DNA of 38,775 bases from Candidatus Sulfobium sp. (GCA_037380845.1 JARRRI010000018.1:4034-42808), one strand, 5' to 3'; shown: positions 34,411-38,760, counted from the first letter of the stretch. Notes: generated by a model not told the origin, from the letters alone. Numbers and translations are program-made.

Positions 34411-35451
34411 TCACTTTCCGTCCGCACAGGCCAGGAAGGCCTCTGCGTTGGGCAGCGGCGTATCGGGCGGCAGGTCGCAGGAAGGCATGAGTATGAACCC
34501 TTCCTGCGGATCGGAAACGGCGGCCAGGCAGTCCGAAACAGAAGCGCATATCGATGCCGGGTCGCCGCCGGCTATCGTGTTTACGGCATCGACATTGCCG
34601 GCCGTTACGGCCTTCCCGCGATAAAGATCGTAGGTCTCCCCTATCGACACGCTGGCATCGACCGAGATGCAGTCTGCGTGTGTTGCCGCATAGAGCGGAA
34701 GCTGCGGTCCTATGGCTCCGCACTGGTGAAGGATACTGCGGACGCCCCGGTCCCGTGCCCAGTCGAAGAGCCCGCGCTCATAGGGCAGGACTATGTCCCG
34801 GTACAGGTCGTCGGGGATGAGGGTGACCGCGCCGTCCGGTACGGCGATGCCGTCGATCAGGCCGCGAGCCAGGAGCGCTTCGAAGAAGGACTGGGAGAGA
34901 CGGACGCCAAGTCCGCAGACCTCCCGGACAAACTCCGTGTCTGATGTCGTTTTTTCCTTCAGCAGGTTCCAGTCGCAGAGGATCATGCCCCAGGCAAATG
35001 GCCCCCAGGACGTGGCGCAGAGGAAGCGGTCCCCAAGCCGCTGTCTCAATACGGCCATCATATCCACCAATGCCAGCGTATGAGGGGAGCTGCCGATATC
35101 TATCTCCCGGAGCGAGCGGGCGTCCCCCGTCTTCTCAATAAGCGGGAAGGAGAGAAGAGGCGCCTGCTCTTCCTTGAAGGCGAGGTGGCCGCCGACCGCC
35201 TCCGCGGGAAAGGTGTTGAGCCCAGAGCCGGCAAAGGCGATGTCCGTATCCAGCCCGCCCAGGAAGCCGCCGAGCCTCGCCCCGAACCCTTCAGGGTCTT
35301 CGAGGAGCCCCCCGATCTTCAGGCCGGCCTGACGGTAGGCCCAGCGGCCGGCACCGTACAGCGCCCTGGGGATGCGTACGCTCCTTTTTCCCTGGAATAC
35401 CCTTATGATACCTTCCCGCCTATGACGAGCATCAGGCCGCAGTCGGGGCAC
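34411..35451 (-). CDS. Uroporphyrinogen decarboxylase / MtaA-CmuA methyltransferase family protein (start uncertain)
   Basis: GPF, ILHQCG, ISVD, AGNVD, FILMPSCDLPPDTP (HxC...C Zn ligands). No ATG near the expected N-terminus; the GTG at 35451 is a guess. Confidence 0.8.
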   Translation of the reverse strand: MPRLRPDARHRREGIIRVFQGKRSVRIPRALYGAGRWAYRQAGLKIGGLLEDPEGFGARLGGFLGGLDTDIAFAGSGLNTFPAEAVGGHLAFKEEQAPLLSFPLIEKTGDARSLREIDIGSSPHTLALVDMMAVLRQRLGDRFLCATSWGPFAWGMILCDWNLLKEKTTSDTEFVREVCGLGVRLSQSFFEALLARGLIDGIAVPDGAVTLIPDDLYRDIVLPYERGLFDWARDRGVRSILHQCGAIGPQLPLYAATHADCISVDASVSIGETYDLYRGKAVTAGNVDAVNTIAGGDPASICASVSDCLAAVSDPQEGFILMPSCDLPPDTPLPNAEAFLACADGK

Positions 35452-35888
35452 TCGGTGTCGCCTGCCGAAACAGGGGAACCGCATGCCGGGCACCTGCCCT
35501 GGTTTGCCAGTTCGTTGGAGGCGCGGATCTCGGGATGCATTTCCATGAAATATCTCTCGATTCGCTCCTGCGCCCGGTCGACATCCTGCGGCGAGACGAC
35601 CAGCCGGCATTTGTCACCGCAGCAGCTTTTCGTGCAGCCGGCATCGGAACGGACGGTGCAGGGGATGCCCGAGTCGATCAGGACGCCGTGAAGTTCACCC
35701 ATCCATTTGAGATCGCCCTCCCTGACCGGGACTTCGTTTTCGATGGCCTTCGCCATGAGCCGTCTCTTCTCTTCCTGCGCCCTCTGGTACTCCTCCGGCA
35801 GGAGGAGTACCGCCCCGCAGTCCGCGCATTTCTCGATATGCGGAAAGTACTCGGCCTCGCAGTCAGGACATATCTTATATTGTTCCAT
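35403..35888 (-). CDS. Multi-zinc-ribbon hypothetical protein
   Basis: CPDC..CADC at the N-terminus, central CTKSCC..C, CPAC..CPDC at the C-terminus. Confidence 0.85.
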   Translation of the reverse strand: MEQYKICPDCEAEYFPHIEKCADCGAVLLLPEEYQRAQEEKRRLMAKAIENEVPVREGDLKWMGELHGVLIDSGIPCTVRSDAGCTKSCCGDKCRLVVSPQDVDRAQERIERYFMEMHPEIRASNELANQGRCPACGSPVSAGDTECPDCGLMLVIGGKVS

Positions 35889-36020
35889 GGCCCGGAGCCG
35901 GGGAAGCAGGAAAGGTTATGTTAACGGTCATGCCGATATATTAGCAGATCAGGGATGGCAAGGGGGAGGCCCCCTCTTTTTTGAGTTGGAATGAAAGAAA
36001 AGTCCTGCTGCCCGGGTTGC

Positions 36021-36233
36021 CTATTCTTCTGTCATGACCTTCAGTACGGCCGGGACCGGTCGCTTGTCTTCCAGTGAAACCGGCGTCTCGCCCTTCCCGG
36101 CCACGGCCGGCCTGCCGCAGTGAAGGCAGGTCTTCATCTGGCAACCCCTGTCGAAGGTGACCCTCACAAAGTATTCATGCCTGTTGATCCTGCACTTGAG
36201 AATACGAATGATACTATTGATCTTTTCCCTCAT
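36021..36233 (-). CDS. 70-aa Cys/His microprotein downstream of the riboswitch
   Basis: RBS GGAGG before ATG; C-x4-H ... C-x4-C-x2-C pattern; lies directly 3' of the riboswitch terminator. Confidence 0.7.
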   Translation of the reverse strand: MREKINSIIRILKCRINRHEYFVRVTFDRGCQMKTCLHCGRPAVAGKGETPVSLEDKRPVPAVLKVMTEE

Positions 36234-36284
36234 TGCCCCCCTCCGTCCATCTTTCCGTTATCAATCCGGGCTGCAGGGGTCCTG

Positions 36285-36332
36285 AAAAAATAAAACGGCC
36301 GCGCAGCCTGGTTACCCTTCGGCAGCGCGGCC
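36285..36332 (-). terminator. Riboswitch expression-platform terminator
   Basis: Minus strand GGCCGCGC ... GCGCGGCC followed by GUUUUAUUUUUU; the 5' arm overlaps the aptamer 3' strand. Confidence 0.8.
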
Positions 36333-36399
36333 ATCATGTCGATGCAGATCCGTCGCTTTCCGCCCCCTCCTCACGAAGGGTTCGGCATTATCGGGGAAT
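36312..36399 (-). ncRNA. GEMM-I (c-di-GMP-I / c-AMP-GMP) riboswitch aptamer
   Basis: Minus strand AUUCCCCGAUAAUGCCGAACCCUUC-GUGA-GGAGGGGGCGGAAAGCGACGGAUCU...GAUGGCCGCGCUGCCGAAGGGUAA: P1, GNRA-capped P2, GGCGGAAAG junction, P3 and CUGCCGAA as in Geobacter-type GEMM-I RNAs. TTGACA at 36435-36440 upstream. Confidence 0.88.
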
Positions 36400-36491
36400 C
36401 TCTGTCGTTAGATATAGCAGACAGAAACGCCCCCTGTCAAGTCAATTTTCAGTACCATCGGGTCGGAGTCAAAGGAGGGAAGCCAGGCCTG

Positions 36492-36677
36492 CTACTTATC
36501 ACTCTCGTAATCAATTTTCTCATAACAGCCGGCCGGACACCCGCGGCATGTCCCGGCAAGAAACGAAAGGTCCTTTTTCTCCTCCGGGAGCTTGCAGTGG
36601 CGTAAATGCTCCTTAGCCTCCCCGGTTGCTCGCTGCAAGATGTTGAATTTCTTCCCACAACGCGGGCACTGTTTCAT
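36492..36677 (-). CDS. 61-aa Cys-rich hypothetical protein
   Basis: CPRC, HxxHC, CxxCxxxC; GAGG RBS and extended -10 TGcTAAAAT upstream. Confidence 0.55.
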   Translation of the reverse strand: MKQCPRCGKKFNILQRATGEAKEHLRHCKLPEEKKDLSFLAGTCRGCPAGCYEKIDYESDK

Positions 36678-36796: not shown

Positions 36797-37531
36797 TTAC
36801 CTGAGCACTTTCCCGTCCATCACAAGACCTGTAATCATTCCTTTTCCATCTTTCCCGAGAGAAACCTCGACCCTTAAGTCTCTTGCGTTCCGGCTGGCCT
36901 CTATCGCTCTGCCTTTGCCTTCTTCGACGAAATAACTTTCGATACCGTACTCGACCGAGAGCTGCCTGAAGTCCGTTGCCTTCACATCCTCTATAACAGC
37001 CCGGAGCGGCTCGCCTGTGTAGCACCGGGGCTTATAGCTCGGGGCCTCCTTCATCTGCATCAGGACATTCCCCCGTTTGTCGAGACAGAAGAGGACGCCC
37101 TCGCCTTTGTCAAACCCGCCGAACCACCGGGGCCTGAGCAGGCGGACGCTGCCCGAGTCGTCTCTGACCGAAACTTCCCAGCGCCGGGCCCGCGTCTCGT
37201 TTCGGACCCGCCCCTGTATAAACTTCCCGCCTGCAGGCGGCACGGCGCTGACTGATACCGCTTTATACGTACCGTCAGGTTCGCCACCCAGGCCCACATA
37301 TACCACATCATTGGGCTTCATCCCGGGCTTTGCACCGAGGGTGTCAAGGTCGAGGTTCGTGATTTCGTAGCGCAGATTGACGTAGTCTCCCCTGAAGATG
37401 TCCCTCGGGTCCACCGGCGCGGTCCGCAGGAGTATCCGGTAGCCCGTGTTTACCCAGTGCTGCCTATAGGCGATCATCCCCGTAAGGAGGAATACCTGAA
37501 GCATCACGATTACGATGAATTTTACCTTCAT
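36797..37531 (-). CDS. GDYXXLXY domain-containing membrane-anchored protein
   Basis: PVDPRDIFRGDYVNLRY, YGIESYFVEEG; N-terminal TM. Confidence 0.92.
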   Translation of the reverse strand: MKVKFIVIVMLQVFLLTGMIAYRQHWVNTGYRILLRTAPVDPRDIFRGDYVNLRYEITNLDLDTLGAKPGMKPNDVVYVGLGGEPDGTYKAVSVSAVPPAGGKFIQGRVRNETRARRWEVSVRDDSGSVRLLRPRWFGGFDKGEGVLFCLDKRGNVLMQMKEAPSYKPRCYTGEPLRAVIEDVKATDFRQLSVEYGIESYFVEEGKGRAIEASRNARDLRVEVSLGKDGKGMITGLVMDGKVLR

Positions 37532-38760
37532 CAGACCTCTTCCGCAGGATTGAATGCCGCAAGTATCTTTCTCCGCTTCCTCTCAAGCAGTACCCCTCCA
37601 AAAAGCAGTATGATCCCGCCCATGATAAAAAATACGGACCTCGGGAGGAGTTTCCAGAAGAAATCGAAATACCGGGCTATGACATCCAGAACAAAGAAGA
37701 GAAGGCCGATATTAACATAGGCTGTGTGCCTCCTCATATAGCCAAGGACCATTATACCGATTATTGCCAGCGCATAAATAATATTCGAGGCGAGTGTGAT
37801 CACGTTTACTGTGAGTGCATGCCGCGGGTCGTAGGGCACCCTCTTGACGAAGAACATGAGCGAAACGGTCATTGCCATCAGAAATACAAGCGAGATCATC
37901 TCGGGAATCCAGCCCTTTTCTTTTGCTCCCGATAATGAATAAAGAATGCCTGATATCAGAAACATGCCGACTATGCCTGCGTAAAACATGATGAGGCCTT
38001 GCGAGCCGAGGGACGCCCGGAAAACGTCAAAGGTAAGTACATAGCCTGCGGAGAACGTGAGCAGGCCCCCCAGGACAAGATAGGGGCCCGACAGCTTTCT
38101 TAAAGGACCGGAACCCCTGTGCATAAGGCCGACGGACCAGAGCGAGATGCCGCTTGCAAGATATAGTGTTACAAAGGGAAGGATATTGCCGTAAGCCAGG
38201 GATATCCGAAAACTGGATTCCATTCCCAGCCAGATCAGCAGGTCGATGATCGCAAGGGTGAGGATCGTCCTGAACCCGAGGAGATATGCCAGGGGAAGCA
38301 CTCCCAGCCCCCACATGAGCGGGCCATTCGGAAAGTGAACGGTTATGTTGTATATCTGGGCGATCAGAAAGATGCCCGCGCCGAAGATTATGGACCCCAG
38401 AAGGATCAACGCCGCCCCGGCCTTCGGAAAGCTTTCTCTGTCGTAGCGAAGATAATAGCCGAGCCCGTAGCTGCAAAGCATTGAGGAAAAAATTATGCCG
38501 AGCTTGCCCCACCTCGGAATTTCCGACCAGTTCGCCGCCACAAAAAGGATCACTCCCACGCCGATCAGGATTGATCCCAGTATGGTGATTGTGGTGACGA
38601 GCCTCCCCGGCCCGGCCTTTTCGTCGGCCTCCTCCAGGAGCCGGTACCGCCCCAGGATCTTCTCCTTCTGCTCAGGGGTGATAATGCCTTCCCTGAGCCA
38701 GGCTTCAGTCTCCTCTTTAAGTTTCCGGTGGAATGAGAAGTTTTGTTCTGAAGGCCGCAT
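37531..38760 (-). CDS. DUF2157 domain integral membrane protein
   Basis: W.REGIITPEQ, FVAANW, GAGIFLIAQIY; TGATG overlap with the GDYXXLXY gene (known pairing). Confidence 0.9.
   Translation of the reverse strand: MRPSEQNFSFHRKLKEETEAWLREGIITPEQKEKILGRYRLLEEADEKAGPGRLVTTITILGSILIGVGVILFVAANWSEIPRWGKLGIIFSSMLCSYGLGYYLRYDRESFPKAGAALILLGSIIFGAGIFLIAQIYNITVHFPNGPLMWGLGVLPLAYLLGFRTILTLAIIDLLIWLGMESSFRISLAYGNILPFVTLYLASGISLWSVGLMHRGSGPLRKLSGPYLVLGGLLTFSAGYVLTFDVFRASLGSQGLIMFYAGIVGMFLISGILYSLSGAKEKGWIPEMISLVFLMAMTVSLMFFVKRVPYDPRHALTVNVITLASNIIYALAIIGIMVLGYMRRHTAYVNIGLLFFVLDVIARYFDFFWKLLPRSVFFIMGGIILLFGGVLLERKRRKILAAFNPAEEV

Follow-up and report, generated by a model that had tools for sequence, protein, structure and literature searches.

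The locus considered here raises the question of whether a riboswitch of the GEMM-I class controls the synthesis of a very small Cys/His protein, and, if so, which second messenger it responds to and whether the small protein is indeed its target. We analyzed a 38,775-nt stretch of DNA from Candidatus Sulfobium sp. (referred to as the window), which corresponds to C18:4034-42808 of a 3.18-Mb assembly consisting of 104 contigs. The host is a Thermodesulfovibrionales-like member of the Nitrospirota, not a Geobacter species. Sequencing runs with matching DNA are marsh and salt-marsh metagenomes, and none of the 15 runs listed is an RNA run carrying the locus. A first-pass annotation of the window had proposed a complete unit on the minus strand, composed of a TTGACA promoter element, a GEMM-I aptamer, an intrinsic terminator sharing one arm with the aptamer, a Shine-Dalgarno (SD) sequence and a small C-x4-H...CxxC ORF, and each of these elements could be located.

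The promoter was read directly from the minus strand and comprises a -35 box (TTGACA, 36435..36440) and a -10 box (TATATC, 36411..36416) with an 18-nt spacer, or alternatively CTATAT with a 17-nt spacer; the TTGACA/TATATC pair was not reported by a consensus promoter scan. An identical TATATCTAAC string is found in a paralogous copy on contig C9. Of the 15 GEMM-I copies in the genome, 13 have TTGAC[AT] in the 90 nt that precede them, most often at a distance of 45-50 nt. Downstream of the promoter lies a complete aptamer of 79 nt (36317..36395, minus strand, model positions 1-80) of the c-di-GMP-I clan, with two helices and a GNRA (GUGA) tetraloop. When the whole window was scanned with cmscan, RF03167 (c-di-GMP-I-GGC) was the sole Rfam family to exceed its gathering score, with an untruncated match of 66.5 bits (cut-off 59, E = 9.6e-14). 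The Rfam c-di-GMP-I model proper, RF01051, whose use had been recommended as a check, gave 60.6 bits against a cut-off of 35 at G000:C18:40351-40429, which equals window positions 36318-36396. The RNA exceeds the curated cut-offs of both models, as expected for the GEMM-I aptamer that had been claimed, and within its well-known class it is unremarkable, with a textbook mechanism.

The expression platform is an intrinsic terminator (36285..36332, minus strand, located by folding), whose stem of 8+3 bp (36332-36297) is followed by a U-tract, GUUUUAUUUUUU, at 36296-36285. This hairpin has a folding energy of -29.5 kcal/mol (z -3.59), and equally good folds arose in 2 of 200 shuffled sequences. 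Its 5' arm (36332-36321) lies wholly within the 3' part of the aptamer (36395-36317), and in the MFE fold of the 131-nt leader the terminator is present and the second aptamer helix is displaced. By this strand overlap the platform competes with the aptamer, as in c-di-GMP-I riboswitches, and the mutual exclusion of the two structures that had been suggested before is borne out. Since the 5' arm of the terminator is inside the aptamer, ligand binding should turn transcription ON, which is the natural reading of the arrangement. A crude rule detected a hairpin overlapping the aptamer 3' end, together with a T-run 19-29 nt downstream, in 9 of the 15 genomic GEMM-I copies; thus, the ON-switch design seems to be the norm in this genome. 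Beyond the terminator, an SD sequence (GGAGG, 36240..36244) stands 6 nt before the ATG at 36233, from which the 70-aa ORF (36021..36233, minus strand) extends with its two half-motifs, C14-x4-H19 and C36-x2-C39.

Three positions of the aptamer bear on its ligand. According to the RF03167 covariance model alignment, model position 10 is a G (36386), position 37 an A (36359; G is conserved at this column in the RF03167 consensus), and position 75 a C (36322), all on the minus strand. From the consensus and the Vc2 numbering, we take these to be the putative equivalents of G20, A47 and C92 of Vc2. The earlier assignment of nt 36386 as a G at the position of the specificity base G20 agrees with the alignment, and the ligand-contact set of a c-di-GMP-I riboswitch (G20/A47/C92) is present as G, A and C. 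It has been described that one of the two guanines of c-di-GMP is read at its Hoogsteen edge by G20, that the other is Watson-Crick paired to C92 (PMC6140456, PMC5888326), and that the A47 backbone contacts the ligand (PMC5888326). With G/A/C at the contact positions, the aptamer therefore belongs neither to the true 'GGC' variants nor to the cGAMP (A20) type. Its predicted ligand is most likely c-di-GMP.

We also examined the other GEMM-I copies and the GGDEF enzymes of the genome. RF03167 matched 15 sites at E <= 0.001 (nine above its cut-off) and RF01051 matched 15 (14 above its cut-off). Of the 15 copies, 13 have G at position 10 and two have A; position 37, judged by eye from the alignment, is A in all of them. 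The only A20 copies, which would be of the cGAMP type by that criterion, are C17:44464-44543 (minus strand), which precedes a 449-aa multiheme cytochrome-like ORF, and C83:10-58 (minus strand), a contig-end fragment. Genes behind the other GEMM-I copies include those for cytochrome-like proteins, lipoproteins and oxidoreductases. Two ORFs come after the GEMM-I copy at C27:20831-20909 (plus strand), the first of 53 aa with many Glu/Lys repeats and the second of 315 aa; the 53-aa ORF may be another small-protein target.

Besides the aptamers, 14 GGDEF-domain matches were found in the genome. A 439-aa GAF-GGDEF protein (L060:347-1666, minus strand; G000:C30) has Ser in place of the canonical Asp in ...GH..G[D/S] and keeps GGDEF rather than GGEEF. 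Ser at this position is reported as the Hypr signature, and its co-occurrence with GGDEF as the 'Goldilocks' combination (PMC6456294); GSU1937 is a modified-motif enzyme (PMC8835794). A HAMP-GGDDF protein (L061:627-1952, plus strand; G000:C22) likewise has Ser at the Hypr position. The search for a Hypr-type GGDEF enzyme that the first-pass annotation had advised has thus produced a candidate, the GAF-GGDEF protein, and the organism may make cGAMP as well. Such synthesis would fit the two A20 aptamers but not the aptamer at 36317-36395.

The protein end of the unit required more sensitive searches. With the 70-aa sequence alone, a word-indexed search recovered just the protein itself (one of one candidate), and no Pfam family applies to it. 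Searching 201 genomes of the order with the single protein gave four weak matches (E 0.002-0.008), which were dropped as chance; none of the four loci has a GEMM-I. When DNA similarity was examined across the family (54 genomes), many matches were confined to the aptamer, and only two reach the ORF, one on C9 (query 1-281, 76% identity) and one on G212:C317 (query 59-328, 75% identity). In the latter genome, of the same genus, a 48-aa homolog is intact and preceded by an SD sequence of its own (E 8.1e-29). A 47-aa homolog is present in G204, a genome that belongs to a different genus of this family (E 5.2e-7, two-sequence profile). The two-sequence profile also retrieved five further small proteins among 1.84 billion representatives. 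Profile searching of these representatives yielded 14 matches at E <= 0.001. Half of these, seven, are genuine small relatives. The remaining seven, which are long or repetitive proteins, were set aside; the one inspected (P0008) is an ankyrin-like repeat that matches RHE..VRL. When the length was left unrestricted in a profile search of the same 1.84 billion representatives, no fused forms were seen. Finally, 17 clusters at E <= 0.01, out of 157 candidates, were retrieved from a 5.8-billion-protein set by an eight-sequence profile. All 17 are unnamed or 'hypothetical', and one member is named from a Nitrospirota MAG.

Family members are 44-107 aa long as called, the longer ones with doubtful N-terminal extensions. 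Among 17 aligned sequences, C14, H19, R24, C36, C39 and G40 are invariant, M1, N17, R18 and Y21 are nearly invariant, and the position of C31 varies (C/H/Q/Y). Moreover, the reading frame is open in all 17 clusters, and the conservation of the ORF on which the first-pass annotation had made its proposal depend is evident. Comparison with the G212 homolog gave a dN/dS of 0.58 over 46 codons, with 16/12/16 differences by codon position, which suggests weak constraint at this distance. The ORF is judged to be protein-coding mainly because of the family-wide invariants, a stronger argument than dN/dS. It represents a real but very rare gene family: of 317 genomes in the order, three have a member at E <= 1e-5 (the window's own counted). 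As far as these searches reach, the family is undescribed, with no Pfam, NCBIfam or PDB relative. Contigs from four marsh-metagenome runs showed no differences in the ORF, the variant letters coming solely from paralogous aptamers. Two other loci were left out of the family, namely a metagenome locus (L054) with C-x4-H...C-x2-C inside a longer frame and no Pfam match, and a Herbiconiux locus (L056), whose match over 15 residues was treated as chance.

As for the structure of the protein, AlphaFold2 with 17 sequences predicted a helix (residues 2-16), a beta-hairpin (21-27/31-36) and a short strand (42-45) at low confidence (pLDDT 62.8); the prediction from 8 sequences was also of low confidence (pLDDT 52.1). 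The model places C14/H19 at the helix end and C36/C39 in a knuckle, an arrangement compatible with one zinc site. The pattern Cys-x4-His...Cys-x2-Cys-Gly is most simply read as a single putative zinc site that joins the N-terminal helix to the beta-hairpin knuckle. Foldseek searches against BFVD and PDB returned nothing at E <= 0.001, and the best BFVD matches were small uncharacterised phage proteins (E 0.03-0.07). Sequence profiles found nothing below E 0.28 in PDB and nothing below E 0.014 in NCBIfam, and matches in PHROGs were weak only (phrog_2670 in 3 of 8 members, best E 0.0033).

The protein had also been said to be reminiscent of DUF1660-type motifs. DUF1660 (PF07874, a prophage protein family) matched the N-terminal ...C-x4-H... 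part of subfamily members below its cut-off of 21.4 bits (18.6 for P0016, the best, and 15.2 for another). A separate comparison gave matches for 2 of 8 members (best E 0.019), and DUF1660-bearing clusters were among the feature and structure neighbours in the ESM Atlas. The resemblance holds to this extent for the relatives and fails for the 70-aa protein itself, which gave no DUF1660 match at E <= 10 and may be called DUF1660-like at most. DUF1660 was absent from all 401 genomes of the phylum searched, and none of the papers searched names it.

We then asked whether the riboswitch travels with the gene. At the C18 locus, riboswitch and ORF are both intact. The same is true of ORF and terminator in G212, where a GEMM-I of 52.7 bits lies directly upstream of the homolog; conservation is lost in the 5' part of that aptamer, which includes the P1 strand and the G20 position. 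The copy most similar to C18 is C9:13300-13573 (76% identity over 281 nt); its ORF is broken, in that the start is lost, frameshifts have occurred and Trp replaces Cys39. The riboswitch is kept there with a broken ORF, so that the RNA has outlived the protein at this locus. The C9 cassette (C9:13300-13870) has the best aptamer score of the genome (72 bits), its promoter and terminator are intact, and the next intact ORF after it is a 150-aa lipoprotein-like one. At the G204 locus, which is identical to the metagenome locus L053, the ORF stands alone and has a TTGACT promoter to itself. Of the four distinct homolog loci for which DNA was available, two (G204/L053 and L052) showed no GEMM-I at E <= 0.01. 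The microprotein gene of the subfamily without a riboswitch lies about 600 nt upstream of an SRP RNA gene (Bacteria_small_SRP, 71.3 bits), as observed for L037 (819-916, minus strand) and L053 (3196-3293, plus strand).

Additional hints came from the way in which two metagenomic members, P0003 and P0015, had been called. Both bear N-terminal extensions beginning with MAALPK, which is an in-frame reading of the aptamer end ...AUGGCCGCGCUGCCGAAG..., and when these extensions alone were compared with the whole genome by tblastn, their best matches lay on the end of the aptamer and on the terminator at C18 and C9 (E 0.12, 0.084, 0.024). The long N-terminal extension of P0017 was considered as a further translated aptamer; tblastn placed it on no riboswitch, and it was not counted. 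The riboswitch link thus recurs in part, in one subfamily (...GC.LKTC.HCG...), at C18, C9 and G212 and, by inference, in P0003 and P0015; it is missing from two other subfamilies. The first-pass annotation had asked whether homologs keep the riboswitch, and the answer is positive for one subfamily (C18, G212) and negative for G204/L053 and L052.

The surroundings of the unit were inspected as well. A GC hairpin (AGGGGG/CCCCCT, 35960-35979) lies between two minus-strand genes and has a T-run on the plus strand only; it therefore reads as a plus-strand terminator, which might terminate antisense transcription or represent a one-sided remnant, no plus-strand gene being evident there. A clear minus-strand terminator was not found after the microprotein ORF, so the downstream genes may share riboswitch control. 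These are a gene for a 161-aa protein (35403-35888, minus strand) that has a zinc ribbon at each end (Zn_ribbon_3, 29.7 bits), followed by a URO-D-like gene. On the other side, a 61-aa CxxC...CxxC ORF (36492-36677, minus strand) has weak zinc-ribbon matches only. The microprotein and its two Cys-rich neighbours would make three putative zinc proteins in a row. Just upstream, an overlapping gene pair (36797-38760, minus strand) encodes a protein with a GDYXXLXY match (112 bits) and a membrane protein of the DUF2157 type (147 bits).

Other explanations of the locus concern either the target or the ligand of the riboswitch, so that a rival of one kind does not exclude a rival of the other. With respect to the target, the riboswitch may be real and the ORF a decaying or dispensable passenger, the regulated genes being the downstream genes for the 161-aa double zinc-ribbon protein and the URO-D-like protein. 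Such a situation is what the C9 paralog looks like, with its intact riboswitch, frameshifted ORF and subsequent 150-aa lipoprotein-like ORF, and it would agree with the dN/dS of 0.58 against G212, with the patchy distribution of the family (3 of 317 genomes of the order), and with the hairpin at 35960-35979, whose T-run is on the plus strand only and which leaves no obvious minus-strand stop. However, the Cys/His pattern is invariant and the frame open across 17 clusters, the ORF has a strong SD, in G204 subfamily members are found alone with a promoter of their own, and the 161-aa gene may have its own promoter-like site (a putative TTGCCA...TATATC, read from the sequence). On balance, we regard the passenger explanation as unlikely.

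With respect to the ligand, the aptamer could sense 3',3'-cGAMP, or both cGAMP and c-di-GMP, like the Geobacter GEMM-Ib riboswitches. The genome offers some encouragement in its two GGDEF-type proteins with Ser at the Hypr position (GAF-GGDEF, with GGDEF and not GGEEF, and HAMP-GGDDF) and in the A at position 10 of 2 of its 15 aptamers. In addition, the pair beside position 10, as seen by eye in the alignment, is flipped to C-G in all genomic copies except C5 and C83, and thus also in the aptamer under study, a feature that the first-pass annotation took to be Geobacter-like. Nevertheless, position 10 of the aptamer under study is G. The reports on these RNAs describe cGAMP-sensing GEMM-Ib aptamers as having A at the G20 position (PMC6140456), an A20G change in the GEMM-Ib scaffold of the Gmet_0970 cGAMP aptamer as making it c-di-GMP-selective (PMC6456294), and wild-type Vc2, with G20, as binding cGAMP only at 10 uM in comparison with picomolar c-di-GMP, which is about a million-fold worse (PMC6140456). 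Recognition of cGAMP is accordingly quite improbable for this aptamer, and of the 'c-di-GMP or dual recognition' once predicted for it, the first half is upheld by the G at the G20 position and the dual half finds no support, given the c-di-GMP selectivity that A20G confers. A true c-di-GMP-I-GGC variant, possibly with a ligand other than c-di-GMP, is still more improbable. RF03167 is indeed the best-scoring Rfam family (66.5 versus 59 bits), but its distinguishing column, the G of model position 37, is A in this aptamer and in all 15 genomic copies, the parent RF01051 is also far above its cut-off, and the 6-bit advantage of RF03167 is most simply explained by a common scaffold. Because the distinguishing nucleotide is absent despite the passing score, the aptamer was not filed as a GGC variant in the presumed sense of that name.

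Our preferred reading, which is probably correct, is that the locus contains a c-di-GMP-induced, terminator-based ON switch driving a zinc-binding microprotein. The locus would form a self-contained transcription unit, in which a sigma-70-type promoter drives a GEMM-I riboswitch. In the absence of ligand, the 3' strand of the second aptamer helix would pair with downstream sequence to form the terminator, and transcription would stop before the gene. With c-di-GMP bound, this strand would be held in the aptamer, no terminator would form, and RNA polymerase would enter the 70-aa gene, which has a strong ribosome-binding site. The presumed product is a soluble zinc-binding microprotein, which would be made only at high c-di-GMP levels; any regulatory role of it would come on top of this. 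The proposal in the first-pass annotation that the protein is an undescribed second-messenger effector does not stand up in the same way: it was pure conjecture, two of the four homolog loci are without the riboswitch, and the C9 paralog lost its ORF and kept its riboswitch.

A bolder reading, which we consider doubtful, would be that promoter, aptamer, terminator and ORF form a cassette that duplicates and decays as a unit, and that the protein is a zinc-binding c-di-GMP output in Nitrospirota, distantly derived from DUF1660-type phage proteins and binding a larger partner. This idea arises because there are two copies in the genome, one in a congener, and two deduced from metagenomic proteins. 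If true, it would provide a second, independent and inducible case of second-messenger control via a microprotein. More generally, riboswitch regulons point to genes controlled by second messengers, and here they flag an unnamed microprotein family, whose members are often mis-started by gene callers, sometimes inside the aptamer itself. The results also extend GEMM-I-rich regulons to marsh-sediment Thermodesulfovibrionales-like Nitrospirota, in which 15 copies, some with G20 and others with A20, occur alongside a candidate GGDEF enzyme of the Hypr type.

Compared to RF01051 c-di-GMP-I riboswitches with a terminator platform, the RNA shows the same full-length match, the GNRA (GUGA) tetraloop, the G/A/C contacts and the shared strand. 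It differs from them in the pair beside the G20 position, where a compensatory change has put C-G in place of G-C, and also in its host, a Nitrospirota MAG, and in its presumed target, which is a microprotein gene instead of a pilus, cytochrome or adhesin gene. RF03167 (c-di-GMP-I-GGC) is the best-scoring model (66.5 bits), but the diagnostic G at position 37 is A here. The Geobacter GEMM-Ib 3',3'-cGAMP riboswitches (Gs1761, Gmet_0970) are ON switches acting via intrinsic terminators, as is predicted here, and in both cases multiheme cytochrome genes are found behind several of the copies. They differ in the specificity base, which is G in the present aptamer and A in theirs. Copies are numerous in both, with 15 in this genome and 17 described for G. 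sulfurreducens (PMC6456294).

A small protein as such is not a new kind of target, in spite of what had been supposed, since a precedent behind a class I riboswitch has been described in C. difficile (PMC13724677). According to that account, the 58-aa proteins of the CD1980.2 family have their genes immediately after class I c-di-GMP riboswitches, which work through premature termination, and they are membrane-associated, repressed by c-di-GMP and promote sporulation (PMC13724677). The family is described there as having several paralogous riboswitch-plus-ORF copies, some riboswitch-less paralogs and one truncated copy, and it is reported to be without homologs outside C. difficile (PMC13724677). 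If the 70-aa protein is a c-di-GMP-induced regulator, the two cases together would make microproteins a recurrent output of c-di-GMP riboswitches. Compared by description only, the microprotein of this study is predicted to be induced and to carry a Cys/His metal site, whereas the CD1980.2 proteins are repressed and membrane-associated.
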